NCBI GenBank assembly: GCA_040390725.1
Contig: JAZJXT010000002.1
Coordinates: 28,450 to 92,449 of the forward strand
Source of the DNA: Patescibacteria group bacterium
GTDB taxonomy: Bacteria; Patescibacteriota; Minisyncoccia; Phycocordibacterales; UBA9973
Length of the DNA stretch: 64,000 nt
Direction of reading: 5' to 3'
Shown: positions 4,382-62,630 of the stretch, in pieces
Layout of the letters: every line of letters starts with the position of its first letter
Numbering within the stretch: the first letter of the stretch is position 1
Program-made: the position numbers and the translations under genes
The notes under the pieces: generated by a model
What the model was told of the DNA's origin: nothing
Databases searched by the model: none
Seen by the model: only the letters and a program-made list of their open reading frames with translations

Positions 4382-4705
4382 TTAATTTCCCCTTAGAAAG
4401 GGTATGATTAGGGTATGTTCAATGCTCGGGCACGGTGTCTCATCGTTTGTTTTTAAAACTTTGTGTTTTAAGCCATCCTCAGAGGGATAATCTAAAAAAA
4501 CATGCACCTCATCGTCTATCTTAATAAGAAACATTAATGCCCCATTTCTTTTAGGGTTTTTCTCCTCAATTTCTTTAAGGTATCCTTCTATATATTGTCT
4601 ATTTAGACAATATATTTTTAGCTTTTCTTTAAAAGGCAACAACATTGTTGCTACGGTCCGTCCTTGGACGTGACATTCTTCGGTGTACAGGGGGTCGTCG
4701 TTCAT
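4382..4705 (-). CDS. hypothetical protein (107 aa)
   Basis: ORF only; no recognisable motif. Confidence 0.4.
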   Translation of the reverse strand: MNDDPLYTEECHVQGRTVATMLLPFKEKLKIYCLNRQYIEGYLKEIEEKNPKRNGALMFLIKIDDEVHVFLDYPSEDGLKHKVLKTNDETPCPSIEHTLIIPFLRGN

Positions 4706-4865: not shown

Positions 4866-5942
4866 TTAGGATTTTTCCAACATATTGAAAACTTTTTCGT
4901 TGGTTAGAACCATCTCGGCGTGCATTTTTGCTCGTTCTGGGTCGGCATCTTTGTAGTGTTCTAGGATATGCGCAACTTCATTCGCAACTTGTTCATCGTC
5001 GGCTTTGATATTTTCTATTTTAGCTATATCGTTTAAAATAAGAGCAAGCTTGGCTTTTTTCTCACCATCTTTGCGGAATTCTTTTTTCAAATCTTCAACT
5101 GTTTTGTTTAAGTGCTTTAAATACTCATCGAATTTCAAACCCATTTGAGTGATGTCGGATTCCATTTTATATAATATTTTACCGACTTCAGATTCAATTA
5201 AAATTTCCGGTAAATCCGCCTTAGTTTCTTCGATTATTTTTTCAATAATTTTTAGACGAGTTTTTTCTTTCGCTTGATTTACTTTTTCGAGCTTTATATT
5301 CTCGCGAAGTTTTTCAGTAAAATCAGCCACGTCCTTGAAGGGTCCGAGAGCTTGCACAAAATCATTATTAAAAGGCGGAAGCTCAGGGGCAAGATTTTTC
5401 TCTTCTTCGGTGGGTGTATGCACTGTGCCGTCTTCGTGAGTGTGAGGTTCTTTCATGTGCATTTTCGGCGCGCGGGATTTGCGGATATCCATAATAGTGT
5501 TTTCCACATCTTCATCAGTCACTTCCACATTTTTTTCTGCATCTGTGGTGTCGGCAATTATTTTCTTTGAGATTTTTTTGTAATCAGGAAGTTTCATTTC
5601 CGGCAAGATTGCGGTTTTGATTTTAAAAGTCAAAGGGTTATTGCGGGCGAGTTTTGTAATCATTATTTCCGGACGGCTGATAGCATCAATTTTATTTTCT
5701 TCCAAAATTTTCGGATAATATTCTGCTAAAGCCATCTCTGCCATTTCTTCCAAAACTCTTATTTCTGGGATATTAGCAGTTAAGATATTCTCTGGGGCTT
5801 TGCCTTTCCTAAAGCCATCCATCTCGAAATTCTCGCCAAGTTTCTTTAAAGCGTTTTTATAATAAGCCTCAAAAACACCGGACTCTATTTCACCCTCCAT
5901 TTCCACCATACTTTGTGGCAATTTGTTTATTTTTATTTGCAT
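4866..5942 (-). CDS. tig: trigger factor (short form, 358 aa)
   Basis: N-terminal ribosome-binding signature GFRKGKAP. Overall TF-like N- and C-domains. Shorter than the canonical ~430 aa (reduced or absent PPIase domain). Confidence 0.8.
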   Translation of the reverse strand: MQIKINKLPQSMVEMEGEIESGVFEAYYKNALKKLGENFEMDGFRKGKAPENILTANIPEIRVLEEMAEMALAEYYPKILEENKIDAISRPEIMITKLARNNPLTFKIKTAILPEMKLPDYKKISKKIIADTTDAEKNVEVTDEDVENTIMDIRKSRAPKMHMKEPHTHEDGTVHTPTEEEKNLAPELPPFNNDFVQALGPFKDVADFTEKLRENIKLEKVNQAKEKTRLKIIEKIIEETKADLPEILIESEVGKILYKMESDITQMGLKFDEYLKHLNKTVEDLKKEFRKDGEKKAKLALILNDIAKIENIKADDEQVANEVAHILEHYKDADPERAKMHAEMVLTNEKVFNMLEKS

Positions 5943-5978
5943 AGGGCTATCCTATACTAAAATAGACTTTTTTTCAAA

Positions 5979-6063
5979 TTTCTACTATAACAAACATATG
6001 TCGACTATCGTAGAAAAGCAAATTGTCTACTATGTCTACATATGGAAGGATAGTAGACAATTT
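5979..6063. promoter_or_regulatory. cluster of GTCTAC-containing repeats including a perfect 14-bp inverted repeat aaattgtctactat / atagtagacaattt (6020-6033 / 6050-6063)
   Basis: Read directly. Additional half-sites tttctactata (5979-5989) and atgtctacata (6033-6043). Located upstream of tig (minus strand) and downstream of ppa. Confidence 0.4.
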
Positions 6064-6084
6064 TGGTGTTTTCGCATGTGGGCA

Positions 6085-6142
6085 TTAAGCAAGAACGGTT
6101 CTTGCTTAAATAGAACTGGGCAACAAACCCTTCAGCGGGTTT
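6085..6142 (-). terminator. two tandem perfect hairpins downstream of ppa (minus strand)
   Basis: ttaagcaagaac g gttcttgcttaa (6085-6109, 12-bp stem) and aaaccc ttcagc gggttt (6125-6142), followed by a G9 homopolymer at 6144-6152. Confidence 0.45.
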
Positions 6143-6175
6143 AGGGGGGGGGTTAAAATAGCAAACATTTATAAT

Positions 6176-6757
6176 TTATTTCTCCAATTTCGGCGCGTAT
6201 TCTTTTTGGTATCTTTCAGCGCATTCTTTGATCACTTTTATCGCTTCTTCTTTTTCGTGAAAAGTTTCCACGACACCGGTGCCGGGCTTTTTCATAGCTT
6301 TGTAATTCTCCCAATAGTATTTGGTTTCTTTTTCCCAATATTCACCGAGGTCTTTATAACTTTTTATGTGATCTGATCTTTTGTCGTCATTTAATACCGC
6401 GATTATTTTGTCGTCTACTTCTCCGCCGTCTATAAATTTCATTATGCCTATTATGCGCGCTTCTACTAATGAACCCGGCACGAGTGGCTCGCTGATGTTT
6501 ACTATTTCTACGTCTAGAGGGTCATTATCTTGATCCCAAGTTTGAGGGATAGCTCCGTAAGTAAAAGGATATGCGAGTGAAGAATATCCGACGCGGTCGA
6601 GTTTGAGTTGTCCGCTTTCTGTTATTATTTCATATTTATTTATTGAACCGGCTGAGACTTCGACAATTACATTTACAACATCATCTTTTGCAAAAGGCGA
6701 AATGACGTGTAAAAGGTTGAGCATGTATTTACTTGGGGGAACGTTTATGTTTGCCAT
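6176..6757 (-). CDS. ppa: inorganic pyrophosphatase (family I)
   Basis: DNDPLDV and EIV motifs. 193 aa. Confidence 0.9.
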   Translation of the reverse strand: MANINVPPSKYMLNLLHVISPFAKDDVVNVIVEVSAGSINKYEIITESGQLKLDRVGYSSLAYPFTYGAIPQTWDQDNDPLDVEIVNISEPLVPGSLVEARIIGIMKFIDGGEVDDKIIAVLNDDKRSDHIKSYKDLGEYWEKETKYYWENYKAMKKPGTGVVETFHEKEEAIKVIKECAERYQKEYAPKLEK

Positions 6758-26978: not shown

Positions 26979-28727
26979 ATGCAACAAAGTGAGTTATTGA
27001 TGAAATTATTAGAAAAAAGAGGCATAACTATCCCTGCCGAAATTGAGAAATTTTTAAACTCCAGCTACGAGAGCGATATGCACGACCCTTTTTTAATGCG
27101 CGATATGGAAAAAGCTTGCGTGCGGATTTTTGAGGCGATGGAAGCCAAAGAAAAAATACTGGTTTATGCGGATTATGATTGCGATGGCATTCCGGGCGCG
27201 GTTATTTTAAATGATTTTTTTAATAAATTAAATTATCAAAACTTTGAGGTGTATATTCCGCAGAGGAATTCCGAGGGATATGGTTTGAATTTGGAAGCGG
27301 TAAAAAAAATGGATGAGGATAGGGTGAAACTTTTGATTACTATTGATTTAGGTATCACAGCCGTGGCGGAAATAGCTCAAGCGGAAGTGTATGGCATAGA
27401 CGTGATAATTACTGACCACCATATTCCTCATGAAGTATTGCCGAGGGCTTATGCTATTTTGAATCCAAAAGTTGATAACTATCCGGAGAAAATGTTGTGC
27501 GGGTCTGGGGTTGTTTTTAAATTAGTGCAAGGGTTTTTGAAAAAGTATGGCGATTACTATCGCGGGGGCGGAGTTTATAATTTTTTGCCTGCGGAACTCG
27601 CCTCCGCTTCGCTACAGCTCAAACAGTCCTCGTCTGCAAAATTACAAACTCCGCCCCCGCGAGACTGGGAGAAATGGCTTCTCGATATGGCAGGGCTCGC
27701 TACACTTTCTGATATGGTGCCGTTATTGGGTGAGAACAGGGCGATTGCGAGTTTTGGAATAAAAGTTTTTAGGAAATCTCCGCGTCCGGGTTTGCAAAAA
27801 CTTTTAGCGAAAATGAATATAGAGCAGAAATATATTTCGGAAGACGATATAGGTTTTATGGTAACGCCACGACTCAATGCAGCATCAAGAATGGATGATC
27901 CGCGTCGAGCTTTTGAATTACTGGCTACGCAAGATGAAACGGAAGCCGGAGTATTGGCAAACCATTTGACGAAAATAAATGATGACAGGAAAAAAATCGT
28001 TGCGGGGATAATGAAAGATGTAAATAAAAAATTCGACAAAAGAGAAATAAAAAATGTGATAGTGATAGGGCATCCGGAGTGGCGGGTCGGGGTTCTCGGT
28101 TTGGTTGCGGGGAAAATTTGTGATGAACATAAAAAGCCGGTTTTCGTGTGGGGGAAAGATGAAAATGATTGCATTAAAGGCTCGTGTCGTTCTGACGGTT
28201 CTGTATCTGTGGTGGAACTTATGACGGAAACAAAAGAATATTTCTTGGATTTCGGCGGACACGAAGGCGCAGGAGGTTTTACTGTGCACAGTGAAAAAAT
28301 ACATTTCTTGGAAGAAAATTTATCTCAATCTTTTCAAAAAATTATAGAGAAAACTATAGTTAAAGAAAAAGTATCGCTTCCAGGCTTTGATGTTAAATTA
28401 AATTTAGGTGATGTAAATATGAAAAATTGGAAAGAGATAGAAAAAATGGCGCCATTTGGTTGTGAAAATCCAAAACCAGTTTTTCTTTTTGAAAATGTAA
28501 AAATAGAAAAATTAAAAAAATTTGGAAAAAACAATTCACAAGAACATTTGGAGATTATTTTTTCTGATGCTACAGGTAAAGCTAAAGCGATTGCATTTTT
28601 CTCCGGCTTGGAATCTTTCAAAAAATCATTAGCCGAAAATTTAAATGTAAACTTATTGGCAACTTTTGATTTATCCCGTTTCCTAAGGAGAGAAGAGCTA
28701 AGATTAAGAATTGTTGATATTTTTTAA
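26979..28727 (+). CDS. recJ: single-stranded-DNA-specific exonuclease RecJ
   Basis: DHH motifs (YADYDCDGI, ITDHH) and DHHA1 region (GGHEGAGG). Contains a 102-bp in-frame palindromic insert at 27561-27662. Confidence 0.9.
   Translation: MQQSELLMKLLEKRGITIPAEIEKFLNSSYESDMHDPFLMRDMEKACVRIFEAMEAKEKILVYADYDCDGIPGAVILNDFFNKLNYQNFEVYIPQRNSEGYGLNLEAVKKMDEDRVKLLITIDLGITAVAEIAQAEVYGIDVIITDHHIPHEVLPRAYAILNPKVDNYPEKMLCGSGVVFKLVQGFLKKYGDYYRGGGVYNFLPAELASASLQLKQSSSAKLQTPPPRDWEKWLLDMAGLATLSDMVPLLGENRAIASFGIKVFRKSPRPGLQKLLAKMNIEQKYISEDDIGFMVTPRLNAASRMDDPRRAFELLATQDETEAGVLANHLTKINDDRKKIVAGIMKDVNKKFDKREIKNVIVIGHPEWRVGVLGLVAGKICDEHKKPVFVWGKDENDCIKGSCRSDGSVSVVELMTETKEYFLDFGGHEGAGGFTVHSEKIHFLEENLSQSFQKIIEKTIVKEKVSLPGFDVKLNLGDVNMKNWKEIEKMAPFGCENPKPVFLFENVKIEKLKKFGKNNSQEHLEIIFSDATGKAKAIAFFSGLESFKKSLAENLNVNLLATFDLSRFLRREELRLRIVDIF
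27561..27662 (+). repeat. 102-bp element with 20-bp terminal inverted repeats inserted in-frame in recJ
   Basis: cgcgggggcggagtttataa (27561-27580) vs ttacaaactccgcccccgcg (27643-27662): 19/20 complementary. 102 bp = 34 codons, encoding RGGGVYNFLPAELASASLQLKQSSSAKLQTPPPR. Confidence 0.55.
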
Positions 28728-35262: not shown

Positions 35263-37050
35263 ATGAGTATAAAAAATAAGCTAGAAAATTTAATAAAAGA
35301 TGCGTTAAAAAAGTTAGAAATGAATTCGCCAGACGGCGAAGTTAATTTTGTCGTAGAACATCCGGAAGATTTTAAGAATGGGGATTACTCTACGAATGTG
35401 GCATTGGTTTATGCTAAGAAATTAAAAATGAAACCTGTTGATTTGGCGGAGAAAATTTTAGCAGAACTTTATGAAGATACAGATGAAAAGGGCATTAAGG
35501 GTGTGGAAAATATAGAGATAGCCGGCGCGGGGTTTATAAATTTTTATTTAACACGTGAATTTTTCAGTGATTCTATAAAAGATATTTTACACAAGAATGA
35601 AGACTGGGGCAGGAATAATTTATTGGAAGGAAAAAAAGTAATGGTGGAATACACTCAGCCGAATCCTTTCAAGCCTTTTCACATAGGGCATTTGATGAGC
35701 AATGCCATCGGAGAGTCAGTTTCGAGAATTGTAGAATTCTCCGGCGCGAAAACTATCCGTGCGAATTATCAGGGTGATGTTGGTCCGCATATTGCGAAAG
35801 CGATTTATGGGATTATGAAAGACCCTGAGTACTTAGAGGCAAGACCTCTCAGTAGAGGTCTTGCCTCTAAGTCGGCATCTTGGATTGGGGAGTGTTATTC
35901 AAAAGGCAGTGATTTGTATGACAATGATCCGGAAGCAAAAAAAGAAATTGATGTAATAAATAAAAAAGTTTACGACAAGAGCGATGAAGAAATAAATAAA
36001 GTTTATGATTGGGGGAGGAAAGTCACCCTCGAAGCATTTGAAGAACTTTATAAAATTCTCGGCACGAAATTCGACTATTATTTTTTTGAAAGCGAGATGG
36101 CACCGATAGGTGAAAAAATTGTCCGCGCAAATGTGCCGAATGTTTTTGAAGAATCCGACCCCACACCAGAGCAAGCTCAGTACGGGGCAAGAGGCGCTAT
36201 TATTTTTCGTGCTGAGAAGTATAACCCTAAATTGCATACGCGAGTGTTCTTAACTTCACAAGGCATACCGCTTTATGAGACGAAGGAAATAGGTTTGACG
36301 ATGACGAAATTTGAAAAAGAAAATCCTGATATTTCTATTGTTGATACAGCTATTGAGCAAGGCGAATATATGAAAGTTGTTCAGCAGGCTATCGCACTCA
36401 TGCATCCGGAATTGGAAAAGAAAATGTTGCATATCACGCACGGTATGATGCGCCTCGCATCGGGCAAAATGTCTTCCCGAAAAGGTAACGTAGTCACAGG
36501 TGAGTCATTGTTGCGAGATTCTATGGATGTCGTATTGGAAAAAATCCAAGATAGAGATTTTACCGAAGAAGAAAAGAAAAAAGTCTCAGAAGTCGTCGGC
36601 GTGTCGGCGCTCAAATATTCTATTTTGCGTTCTTCTGTCGGCTCGGATATTGTTTATGATTTTGATAAATCAATTTCGTTTGAAGGGGATTCCGGCCCAT
36701 ATTTACAATATTCCGCTATCCGCGCGAAATCAATCCTCGCAAAAGCCAAAAGTGAAAATTTGGAGGCTAAACCTCCAAAAGAAGTTCCAGAACAAATTTC
36801 AGATTTAGAAAAAATTCTTTATCGTTTCCCCGAAGTTGTCGCGCGCTCATATGAAGACCTCGAACCGCACAATATCGCCACATATTTGACCGAGCTTTCA
36901 TCATCCTTCAATTCTTTTTACGCCAATACACAAATCTTAAACAATGAAGATAAATTTTCTTCATATTATTTAGCACTCACCAAAGCATTTTTCATCACAA
37001 TGCAAAACGGCCTTTGGCTTTTGGGAATTAAATTGCCGGAGAGGATGTAA
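35263..37050 (+). CDS. argS: arginyl-tRNA synthetase
   Basis: Start at the ATG at 35263 (MSIKNKLENL), 1 nt after the dut stop. PNPFKPFHIGHLMSNAIG (HIGH), DALR-type C-terminus. Confidence 0.9.
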   Translation: MSIKNKLENLIKDALKKLEMNSPDGEVNFVVEHPEDFKNGDYSTNVALVYAKKLKMKPVDLAEKILAELYEDTDEKGIKGVENIEIAGAGFINFYLTREFFSDSIKDILHKNEDWGRNNLLEGKKVMVEYTQPNPFKPFHIGHLMSNAIGESVSRIVEFSGAKTIRANYQGDVGPHIAKAIYGIMKDPEYLEARPLSRGLASKSASWIGECYSKGSDLYDNDPEAKKEIDVINKKVYDKSDEEINKVYDWGRKVTLEAFEELYKILGTKFDYYFFESEMAPIGEKIVRANVPNVFEESDPTPEQAQYGARGAIIFRAEKYNPKLHTRVFLTSQGIPLYETKEIGLTMTKFEKENPDISIVDTAIEQGEYMKVVQQAIALMHPELEKKMLHITHGMMRLASGKMSSRKGNVVTGESLLRDSMDVVLEKIQDRDFTEEEKKKVSEVVGVSALKYSILRSSVGSDIVYDFDKSISFEGDSGPYLQYSAIRAKSILAKAKSENLEAKPPKEVPEQISDLEKILYRFPEVVARSYEDLEPHNIATYLTELSSSFNSFYANTQILNNEDKFSSYYLALTKAFFITMQNGLWLLGIKLPERM

Positions 37051-59257: not shown

Positions 59258-59298
59258 CCCGATGTCGGACATATGGGAACCATATGTCCGACATCGGG
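59258..59298 (+). promoter_or_regulatory. perfect 19-bp inverted repeat (3-nt loop) between ssb and rpsR
   Basis: cccgatgtcggacatatgg gaa ccatatgtccgacatcggg; 13 nt upstream of the rpsR ATG. Confidence 0.5.
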
Positions 59299-61509: not shown

Positions 61510-61836
61510 ATGATAGATCTCAAACAATTACAAAAAGAAATAATGCAAAATAAGTTAGAGAAGGGTTTTAATACTGATGTGACCCATGAATTTTGTCGAG
61601 CCTACGAAGAACTCTCGGAGGCATTTTCAAAATATAATAAAGGTCAAGACGGGATAGCCGAAGAATTTGCAGATGTCGCCATATTTTTACTAGGTATGTG
61701 CGAAACACTAGGTTTTGATTTGGAGAAAGAAATAAAAAATAAAGTTCAAAAAAATAAAAATAGAAAATATAGAAAAGAAAAATCACCAGACGGCAAAGAT
61801 ATTTTTATACGTATAAAGACCGACGAAGATCCTTAG
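61510..61836 (+). CDS. MazG-like nucleoside triphosphate pyrophosphohydrolase (small)
   Basis: EELSEA...EEFADVAIFLLGMCETLGFDLE...K...KNRKY EExxE/ExxD pattern. Confidence 0.6.
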   Translation: MIDLKQLQKEIMQNKLEKGFNTDVTHEFCRAYEELSEAFSKYNKGQDGIAEEFADVAIFLLGMCETLGFDLEKEIKNKVQKNKNRKYRKEKSPDGKDIFIRIKTDEDP

Positions 61837-61884
61837 AAAATTGTCTACTCTCACTATCATATGAGTTTCATAGTAGACAAAATT
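61837..61884. promoter_or_regulatory. inverted repeat aaaattgtctact-N20-agtagacaaaatt (same motif as at 6020-6063)
   Basis: Read directly; upstream of the 62064 gene, immediately after the MazG-like stop. Confidence 0.4.
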
Positions 61885-61911: not shown

Positions 61912-61940
61912 TTGACATTAAAAGTTTTATATGCTACATT
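61912..61940 (+). promoter_or_regulatory. candidate promoter TTGACA-N17-TACATT
   Basis: ttgaca (61912-61917), 17-nt spacer, tacatt (61935-61940). Confidence 0.35.
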
Positions 61941-61985
61941 TTTTGTGATGCTAGTTCGTTGAAAAGATCTTGTTTTTGATGAAAA

Positions 61986-62039
61986 TTTTGAAAACTATCA
62001 TAACAACTATTTACTTGGTTTGTATGATAGTTTTCAAAA
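61986..62039 (+). promoter_or_regulatory. perfect 17-bp inverted repeat in the 5' leader of the 62064 gene
   Basis: ttttgaaaactatcata -N20- tatgatagttttcaaaa. Confidence 0.4.
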
Positions 62040-62063
62040 TTAATTTCACAAATTCAAATCAAA

Positions 62064-62630
62064 ATGAAAAGAATAGTTATCATGGCTGTAATCAGCTTGA
62101 GTATTTGTTTATCCGTTTTTTCTCAGGAAAATAAAAATGGATGGTTTGCAAATCTTCAAACGCAAACAGGTGACAGTATTAGGTTATACTTAATTTCTAA
62201 TATAAGTGTAGCTTATACAAAACAGTTCAATAATGTTGCAAAAGCAGCTGGACCTTTAACAAAAAGTGATGACGAAATTTTTAAGGTTGCTGAGCTCTAC
62301 AAGGCACCAGAGAAAGATTCGATTGAAACAGTTGTTTTAGTTAACTTTCCTAATGGTGATGGAAGTTGGTCTAAAGCTCTCAGCTGGGGAGTTAAGAATA
62401 ATCTTCGTATAACAGACCCACACCTTGTTTTTGCAATCGCAGAGAAGTTCCCAAAGCTTAACTGGAAACCTCCTTTTGGTAGTTGGACATACCTTATTGA
62501 GACAACAGGTTGCACTTTTAATGAAAGTAGACAAATGTGCTGTGTTTTGTTTAATGGTTTGGATAGAGCATCTTTATTGCTTTACCAAAAAGCCGGGCAA
62601 AAAAATACCTGGTTTGCTTTTCGAAAATAA
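62064..62630 (+). CDS. secreted hypothetical protein (188 aa)
   Basis: Signal peptide MKRIVIMAVISLSICLSVFS|QE; no recognisable domain. Confidence 0.45.
   Translation: MKRIVIMAVISLSICLSVFSQENKNGWFANLQTQTGDSIRLYLISNISVAYTKQFNNVAKAAGPLTKSDDEIFKVAELYKAPEKDSIETVVLVNFPNGDGSWSKALSWGVKNNLRITDPHLVFAIAEKFPKLNWKPPFGSWTYLIETTGCTFNESRQMCCVLFNGLDRASLLLYQKAGQKNTWFAFRK

Follow-up and report, generated by a model that had tools for sequence, protein, structure and literature searches.

By sequence comparison, the inverted repeats at two intergenic loci of a 64,000-nucleotide window from a Patescibacteria group bacterium (contig JAZJXT010000002.1; the window is the whole stretch of DNA that was analyzed) belong to a conserved three-part palindrome family of Parcubacteria, ~36-38 bp long, and we think it probable that they are binding sites of an autoregulated PaaX-like regulator with a small, evolutionarily fluid set of further sites. 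The parts of this reading differ in strength: that the repeats would be the cognate site of a PaaX-like protein is held with more confidence than the statement as a whole, and that the protein may control tig and ORF188, the genes downstream of the two loci, is held with less. Three copies are distinguished in the window, two in tandem at locus A (A1 and A2) and one at locus B:

5979 to 6016, no strand: copy A1, TTTCTACTATAACAAA-CATATG-TCGACTATCGTAGAAA, with T-variant arms TTTCTAC / GTAGAAA; degenerate

6020 to 6063, no strand: copy A2, 14-bp arms; core TGTCTACT-N7-CATATG-N7-AGTAGACA at 6024-6059, center at 6039-6044

61841 to 61880, no strand: copy B, TTGTCTACT-N8-CATATG-N8-AGTAGACAA, center at 61858-61863

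The original prediction, which was made from the letters of the window alone, described a perfect 14-bp inverted repeat at 6020-6063, and this description is confirmed: the arms AAATTGTCTACTAT (6020-6033) and ATAGTAGACAATTT (6050-6063) are complementary at 14 of 14 positions across a 16-nt spacer. Its claim that the same arms recur near 61837-61884 holds for the 9-bp arms TTGTCTACT (61841-61849) and AGTAGACAA (61872-61880), complementary at 9/9 positions across a 22-nt spacer, but not for the A/T flanks of these arms, which do not pair. At the exact dyad of both repeats stands CATATG (6039-6044 in A2, 61858-61863 in B). This center, the ~38-bp extent of the element, and the third copy A1 are all missing from the earlier description. 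A1, found by aligning the two loci, reads TTTCTACTAT..CATATG (5995-6000)..CGTAGAAA; its center lies 44 bp from that of A2, and both of its arms bear a matching G>T / C>A change, giving the T-variant arms that also occur in L041, L084, L086, and L087 (loci from other genomes are numbered with an L throughout). Two extra GTCTAC half-sites had been placed at 5979-5989 and 6033-6043. The first reads TTTCTACTATA (TTCTAC) and is the left arm of the degenerate copy A1; the second, GTCTAC at 6034-6039, lies inside the A2 spacer, where it abuts CATATG, and is a variant of the usual inner ATCTTTA, not a demonstrable extra half-site.

Both repeats stand out statistically in the window. The exact 9-mer TTGTCTACT occurs five times, four of them within the repeats of loci A and B; the fifth (62526-62534), a solitary half-site, falls within the open reading frame (ORF) at 62064-62630, as chance could allow. 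The pattern TGTCTACT-N5-10-CATATG-N5-10-AGTAGACA is present twice in the window versus never in 100 shuffles. Scored with a profile of the family sites, A2 has an E value of 5.8e-10 and B of 9.4e-8, and A1 is weak (0.056); the inner 8-mers of copy B depart from the family consensus.

To characterize the family, metagenome contigs were scanned with a pattern derived from the window in which both the arms and CATATG were required. The scan returned 45 sites in 42 contigs, where only a few would be expected by chance (a rough estimate from the 22 specified bases, the size of the collection being unstated); among viral contigs the same scan returned none. AT-rich contigs (27-46% GC) account for 37 of the 42 and include groundwater sets such as Hainich, and the remainder, four contigs with 10/10 gaps between arms and center and one of 62% GC, were judged to be different things. 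The arm-to-center gaps are symmetric, 8/8 in most sites and 7/7 in others, and positions that the search had left free are conserved as well (TGTCTACT-A-WCT-N3-A-CATATG-T-N3-AGW-T-AGTAGACA), which yields the consensus TGTCTAC-Y-A-W-CT-N3-A-CATATG-T-N3-AG-W-T-R-GTAGACA over ~36-38 bp. Away from the regulator gene described below, the density is ~1 copy per 25-30 kb, with two to three copies in the window and ~3 extra in 80 kb of contigs picked independently of the motif; a dispersed, conserved palindrome at this density in Parcubacteria partly bears out the proposal that the repeats form a small palindromic repeat family. Some solitary copies lie just upstream of the promoters of purH, dnaX, L25, gatB, and one tRNA (anticodon GAT by reading). 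At purH and dnaX the arm is 24-27 nt upstream of the -10 box; with this spacing in place of 17 bp, we rejected the idea that the solitary palindromes are outward-facing promoters.

A scan with the arms alone, TTGTCTACTNT-N10-24-ANAGTAGACAA, across 185,579 reference genomes gave 31 loci from unrelated phyla, which on inspection are mixed palindromes: perfect hairpins, an operator-like palindrome before an antitoxin-like gene (L013), a Sphingobacterium repeat, and repeats ~100 bp from tRNA-like sequence (L005 and L022). Only L021, from Nomurabacteria, is the same element.

Clustering of the ORFs beside the sites revealed one gene family, encoding proteins of ~188-195 aa, with 19 flanking ORFs in 17 contigs. 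A site directly adjoins a family gene in 17 of the 37 AT-rich contigs, for which a rough binomial assuming ~700 intergenic regions per genome gives p of about 1e-33. The proteins match Pfam PF20803, PaaX_M (29-34 bits against a cut-off of 24; E values of 1e-7 to 3e-8), a domain that is precomputed for nearly all homologs. Their N-terminal half has a weak winged-helix match, HTH_45, below the Pfam cut-off, and PADLOC Cas2 models match residues 116-160 with E values of about 1e-5. An AlphaFold2 model from a 58-sequence alignment (predicted local distance difference test score, 85) consists of a winged helix, whose helices (2-13, 20-30, and 57-72) precede a beta wing (76-86), and then a ferredoxin-like domain; of the solved structures, E. 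coli PaaX (8a39) matches it best, with a probability of 0.99, next come Rv0674, numerous Cas2 proteins, and Sso10a, and PadR is also matched. PDB sequence searches with the family protein returned nothing. In Pfam, NCBIfam, PADLOC, and PHROGs the only matches were PaaX_M, Cas2-like, and winged-helix, with no transposase, HUH/Y1_Tnp, or phage-family match; no PaaX_C match was found, and the proteins end ~10 residues past the Cas2-like domain.

The family is widespread. A profile search of 1.84 billion cluster representatives (50%-identity clusters) recovered 239 members at a cut-off of E <= 1e-30 and 1,946 when the cut-off was relaxed to 1e-3, with lengths almost always of 185-205 aa, and homologs with a source name are listed as 'hypothetical protein' of Nomurabacteria, Parcubacteria, or Paceibacterota. 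The gene neighborhood is conserved across many lineages in the order obg, family gene, gatB, fba ... L25, with pyrG and dnaX as other neighbors. A second, distant PaaX_M paralog of 201 aa is encoded in L083 (4896-5501) and L084 (302-907), and in both the element recurs 440-660 bp further downstream, beside the stop of a convergent RNase T gene.

The placement of the element around the family gene is highly regular. All 12 intact genes that were found through the motif and have both ends in the contig are bracketed by two copies, one 5-35 bp upstream of the start and one 2-45 bp past the stop, 620-680 bp apart. As a control for bias, we took seven genes identified via protein similarity alone (L082-L088) together with L021, found by its arms with CATATG not required; 8 of these 8 have one copy at the promoter and one past the stop. 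The downstream copy is kept even where the next gene is convergent (L045, L049, L063, L071, and L085). The upstream copy provides the predicted -35 box, adjoins it, or encloses the entire promoter, and two layouts recur. In the first (L034, L035, L039, L049, and L055), the right arm serves as the predicted -35 box in the arrangement TAGACA/TGGACA, 17 nt, TACAAT/TATAAT/TACTAT, 6-7 nt, ATG, a spacing that implies a leaderless transcript for the family genes. In the second (L037, L045, L053, and L063), the promoter lies inside the site as TTGTCT-18-TAAAAT/TACAAT/TATAAT, with the ATG 7-8 nt after the site; because the promoter is inside the site, its inner halves are non-complementary at these loci.

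The strongest argument that the family protein may read the element comes from the covariation of protein and site. At one position of the predicted recognition helix (KEKI-R-NFKKY), Arg and TGTCTAC arms go together at 13/13 loci, and in the remaining set 6 of 7 loci combine Leu, Asn, or Asp at this position with arms that have no G (TTTCTAC, TATTAC, CTTAC); the association of Arg with the arm G has a Fisher p of 1.8e-4, not corrected for shared ancestry. The position is hypervariable in 120 homologs (L 29, R 24, N 22, others), appears to behave as a specificity-determining residue, and is a candidate partner of the arm G. Furthermore, the arms vary by lineage but agree between the two copies of a gene, as with TATTACYATCT in L083, TTTCTAC in L084, L086, and L087, and CTTAC in L088; lineage-specific centers behave likewise, with CGATCG in both L021 copies and GTATATAC in both L085 copies. 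On the basis of the Arg-G covariation, an Arg-type protein is predicted in the genome of the window.

In E. coli, the operator bound by PaaX is TGATTC-N27-GAATCA, and repression of Px, the promoter of its own gene, results from RNA polymerase being blocked (PMC9493321). The family protein shares with PaaX a winged helix at the N-terminus and, after it, the Cas2-like PaaX_M domain. Its putative site is similar in architecture, with short inverted arms and a long spacer (here 7-10-bp arms 16-24 bp apart), and likewise overlaps the regulator's own promoter. There are differences as well: the family protein, at ~189 aa, is without the PaaX_C effector domain that binds phenylacetyl-CoA in PaaX; paa genes are not nearby, the neighbors being housekeeping genes (obg, gatB, fba, L25, pyrG, dnaX); the site sequence is unrelated, and its conserved central CATATG is undescribed for PaaX; and the regulator gene is here bracketed by two sites. 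The pair resembles PaaX and its operator but departs from them in two defining respects, the PaaX_C domain and the paa gene context.

We propose that the protein would bind as a dimer: each outer arm would be contacted by one winged helix, the arm centers lying ~30 bp (three helical turns) apart, and the dimerized Cas2-like domains would span the 22-24-bp middle, where CATATG, an easily bent sequence, marks the dyad. At its own gene, the dimer would repress by occupying the promoter and occluding RNA polymerase; the copy past the stop codon might cooperate with it by looping or might block transcription. The regulator of the window would be an Arg-type version that matches TGTCTAC arms and is encoded elsewhere in the genome. 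Bound to the tandem copies A1/A2, at about -37 to -120 from the predicted start of tig, and to copy B, it may modulate both downstream promoters (tig and ORF188) or shield them from transcription reading through from ppa and the MazG-like gene, with either sign of effect.

Two further comparisons touch parts of this proposal. LacI (O1/O2), DeoR, and GalR are looping repressors with auxiliary operators; the bracketed genes are like them in having at least two palindrome copies, one at the promoter and another hundreds of bp off, and differ in that the second site lies just past the regulator's own stop, even when the next gene is convergent. In Cas1-Cas2 complexes, the Cas2 dimer spans a ~23-bp duplex, which resembles the 22-24 bp between the arms, a resemblance only. 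The C-terminal domain of the family matches Cas2 profiles and the Cas2 fold and keeps the Asp of the YDI(P/S) motif, whereas no cas1 gene, repeat-spacer array, or CRISPR context accompanies it and the domain is fused to a winged helix. A CRISPR array, which needs at least three evenly spaced direct repeats around unique ~30-bp spacers, was rejected as an explanation of the repeats, whose copies are single or paired, 44-680 bp apart, with genes between.

In the window, the genes and predicted promoters at the two loci are as follows:

4866 to 5942, minus strand: tig (trigger factor), downstream of A1/A2, with Trigger_N and Trigger_C domains

5949 to 5977, minus strand: predicted tig promoter, TTGAAA-17-TAGGAT, from a consensus scan only

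6176 to 6757, minus strand: ppa (inorganic pyrophosphatase), upstream of A2, stop codon 116 bp from the A2 core

61510 to 61836, plus strand: MazG-like ORF (PF12643, E value 1.7e-7), stop codon immediately before copy B

61912 to 61940, plus strand: predicted promoter of the ORF at 62064-62630, TTGACA-17-TACATT with TG, from a consensus scan only

62064 to 62630, plus strand: ORF188, downstream of copy B; 188 aa, signal-peptide-like N-terminus, no Pfam match

Locus A sits between the ppa stop (6176) and the tig start (5942), both on the minus strand. A1 ends 2 bp short of the -35 box predicted for tig, and A2 is one site further upstream; A1 also holds a possible extended -10 element (TGtTATAGT, minus strand, 5984-5992). 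With the ATG (5942) only 7 nt past the end of the predicted tig -10 box, a leaderless transcript is predicted, as for relatives. Copy B begins 5 bp past the MazG-like stop and 184 bp upstream of ORF188, and the predicted ORF188 promoter is ~32 bp downstream of it. The nearest Tig relatives (70-76% identity) come from Candidatus Nomurabacteria and Paceibacterota, and in four relatives the region upstream of tig holds a GC-rich terminator and a TTGACA/TATAAT promoter. In L075, L077, L078, and L080 the tig promoter reads TTGACA-17-TATAAT with the ATG 7-12 nt past the -10 box; taken with the 6-7 nt of the family genes, this spacing suggests a clade in which many transcripts have no leader or almost none.

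Several observations weigh against the reading of the repeats as operators of a PaaX-like regulator. The original prediction offered a dimeric-regulator site as one of its options, and adjacency, promoter overlap, and covariation do tie the family to one DNA-binding protein; however, tblastn and a profile search of the 64-kb window turned up no gene of the family. At the family genes the sites overlap the -35/-10 boxes; in the window they lie upstream of, not over, the predicted core promoters (these promoters being consensus matches only). The proposed control of tig and of the 'secreted protein' gene was inferred from position only, and in four relatives, whose Tig proteins are 72-76% identical, the element is missing upstream of tig and from ~70 kb overall; any control of tig would therefore be specific to the lineage of the window. 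Copies also stand between convergent gene ends, with no promoter to control (L045, L049, L063, L066, L071, L083, and L084), and L035 breaks the Arg-G rule by combining Val with TGTCTAC arms.

A further observation of this kind is that the two arms change together. Mirrored positions 2, 8, 10, and 16 change jointly, with a score reached by 0 of 500 shuffles. The pairs are G:C 27 and T:A 3 at position 2; T:A 18, C:G 8, and T:G 4 at position 8; A:T 16 and T:A 11 at position 10; and A:T 22, T:A 5, G:C 2, and C:G 1 at position 16, which flanks CATATG. Complementarity at mirrored positions 11-15 is at chance level. The joint changes occur partly within single genomes (L044, L053, and the window), so altered regulator specificity cannot account for all of the covariation. 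An independent reading of two half-sites does not predict joint change of the arms; possible causes are selection for a hairpin or cruciform, recognition of strict symmetry, template-switch symmetrization, or copying of sites. The arm covariation thus keeps readings based on mobile palindromes and on structured DNA alive.

One such alternative, which we regard as unlikely although it ranks first among those considered, is that the palindrome and the bracketed gene form a self-contained, undescribed module of the candidate phyla radiation (CPR), whose protein reads a structured (hairpin or cruciform) or strictly symmetric form. It is raised because the arms and the flanks of the center co-vary within one genome and because a Cas2-derived dimer might measure the 22-24-bp middle. 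If it were true, the dispersed copies would be roadblocks or insulators at the ends of transcription units, or products of past mobility, and not classical operators, and the pair would hint at a link between Cas2-type proteins and palindromic repeats outside CRISPR.

A more doubtful alternative is that the element is a low-copy mobile or self-propagating palindrome with a bracketed partner gene, in the manner of REP/RAYT systems (REPtrons), which would make the window copies orphan insertions with no regulatory role. In its favor, the gene always stands between two copies 620-680 bp apart, the scattered copies occupy all types of intergenic region, convergent ones included, and the compensatory changes of the arms include the G:T intermediates expected for hairpin-dependent elements. 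In addition, the element is missing upstream of the relatives' tig, the non-palindromic inner ATCTTTTA..TTCGAGAT recurs at unrelated loci, and the Cas2-type Asp of the SYDIP motif is invariant in the family. On the other hand, the transposase or HUH/Y1 domain of such systems was not found in Pfam, NCBIfam, PADLOC, or PHROGs, the family gene keeps its obg/gatB/fba/L25 neighborhood across many lineages, and the phasing of the sites with the -35/-10 boxes is conserved. Copy number is low as well, with ~3 extra sites per 80 kb, or ~1 copy per 25-30 kb here versus hundreds per genome for REP/RAYT; target-site duplications are not evident, and the viral contigs contain none.

Lower again we place a nucleic-acid hairpin or cruciform acting in its own right, as an unusual, possibly two-way terminator, a 3'-end stabilizer, or a structure recognized by protein. 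Folding energies favor it: A2 folds at -15.4 / -17.2 kcal/mol on the two strands (z -5.8 / -4.6) and B at -11.9 / -13.8 kcal/mol (z about -2.5). In many cases a copy begins 2-25 bp past a stop codon, as copy B does at 5 bp, the compensatory changes fall in the outer 10 pairs, and single-arm changes are mostly G:T and not C:A on the sense strand of the family genes (about 9 versus 3, not significant). However, the stems are AT-rich, with 2-3 G:C pairs per 9, the loops are 16-22 nt, a T-tract is not consistently present, and a terminator scan found no terminator-like site at locus A or B. These features depart from the GC-rich stem, 3-8-nt loop, and T-tract of an ordinary intrinsic terminator, which was rejected on that ground, and ordinary GC-rich terminators with T-tails are used in the clade. 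Upstream copies overlap the -35 box and hence lie outside the transcript they precede; the pair flanking CATATG co-varies even though no stable stem is possible beyond the 5x5 internal loop; and the lineage-specific arms track a protein residue. Rfam covariance models gave no gathering-threshold match in the whole window (5900-6200 has only chance-level ones, with E of about 1 or more) and a tRNA scan with ARAGORN found nothing at the repeats, and a known RNA or tRNA was rejected on these results.

The least probable of the four is that the window copies are decaying relics, for example operators that outlasted the relocation or loss of the regulator gene, without current influence on tig or ORF188; the missing regulator gene in the 64-kb window, the degeneracy of A1, the nonconsensus inner sequence of B, the decayed arms around an intact gene in L082, which show that sites erode, and the missing tig site in relatives would fit it, but A2 keeps perfect 14-bp arms and B perfect 9-bp arms, each with an exact center, and such persistence is unlikely without selection in AT-rich intergenic DNA.

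Two other candidates were tried and rejected. The CIRCE consensus, TTAGCACTC-N9-GAGTGCTAA, is the HrcA heat-shock operator, and locus A is like it in being an inverted repeat upstream of a chaperone gene (tig). An operator of the CIRCE/HrcA or GntR/HutC type was considered, but the sequences do not match, CIRCE being unrelated in spacing as well, and the comparative data point elsewhere. The second lead came from L025 (Patescibacteria), where dense TGTCTAC / TGTCTAGACA repeats at 4536-4625 lie directly upstream of a 230-aa gene whose N-terminus resembles, by eye, an excisionase-type helix-turn-helix, with TGTATAGGCGG motifs repeated nearby; the cluster has the look of iterons or of arrayed operators. 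No homolog of this excisionase-like gene is present in the window, and the lead was dropped.

To our knowledge, the Parcubacteria and the CPR have tiny genomes, few recognizable regulators, and no genetics, and the control of their genes is almost wholly obscure. The searchable literature yielded no description of the protein family, the element, or the bracketing, and nothing relevant on PaaX in the CPR or on Parcubacteria regulons. A regulator of the PaaX type, as favored here, would link a precise, searchable DNA element to one widespread family whose source-named members are annotated as 'hypothetical protein', and the copies upstream of genes would nominate tig, purH, dnaX, gatB, L25, and a tRNA as candidate targets. 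Its predictions are testable in vitro with synthetic protein and DNA, in a culture-free manner, and the bracketing and the Cas2-like domain bear on the evolution of PaaX-type regulators and of Cas2.

Other palindromes were noted near the two window loci and elsewhere in the window. Between the predicted promoter and the ATG of ORF188 lies a 35-nt inverted repeat (61973-62052; 80% complementary, 10-nt loop), which could be a leader hairpin or a second operator; the 5' region of this ORF folds at -33.8 kcal/mol (z -5.1). The region past the ppa stop at 6088-6152, which the terminator scan left unflagged, holds nine consecutive G (6144-6152) and two short hairpins, GCAAGAAC-cg-GTTCTTGC and AAACCC-gctgaa-GGGTTT. 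At 59258-59298, CCCGATGTCGGACATATGG / CCATATGTCCGACATCGGG form a perfect 19-bp palindrome around a 3-nt loop; it contains CATATG and overlaps the start of the 79-aa ORF at 59273. An inverted repeat at 27560-27662, with 25-nt arms 53 nt apart and the GC-rich core TCGCGGGGGCGGAG, and a perfect 19-bp palindrome at 35831-35872, ACTTAGAGGCAAGACCTCT, whose loop is 4 nt, could be members of the further palindrome families to which the earlier description alluded.

Among the scanned sequences, L003 (1511-1550; labeled Elusimicrobia) and L046 (558-595; 62% GC) carry a palindrome almost the same as the element, TGTCTACTTTTC.GNCCATATGGCTA.AAAAGTAGACA; no PaaX-like gene was found in these fetched GC-rich contigs. 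The ATG of their central CATATG opens a frame MA(K/R)KVDN..., which in L046 is in frame within a 397-aa ORF (in L003 by reading); with the ATG within the palindrome center, the upstream arm would pair with the first codons. In L047, L048, L073, and L074 a near-perfect palindrome of 42-46 bp has the same outer arms and center with 10-nt GC-rich inner arms, TTGCGTTTG, and lies between a 128-aa gene and a large secreted-protein gene; despite the common arm sequence, it is a separate element. Finally, downstream of the element in L041, at ~4885-5195, the intact tRNA gene is preceded by two truncated repeats of a tRNA 5' part, and the related L057 has a single copy.

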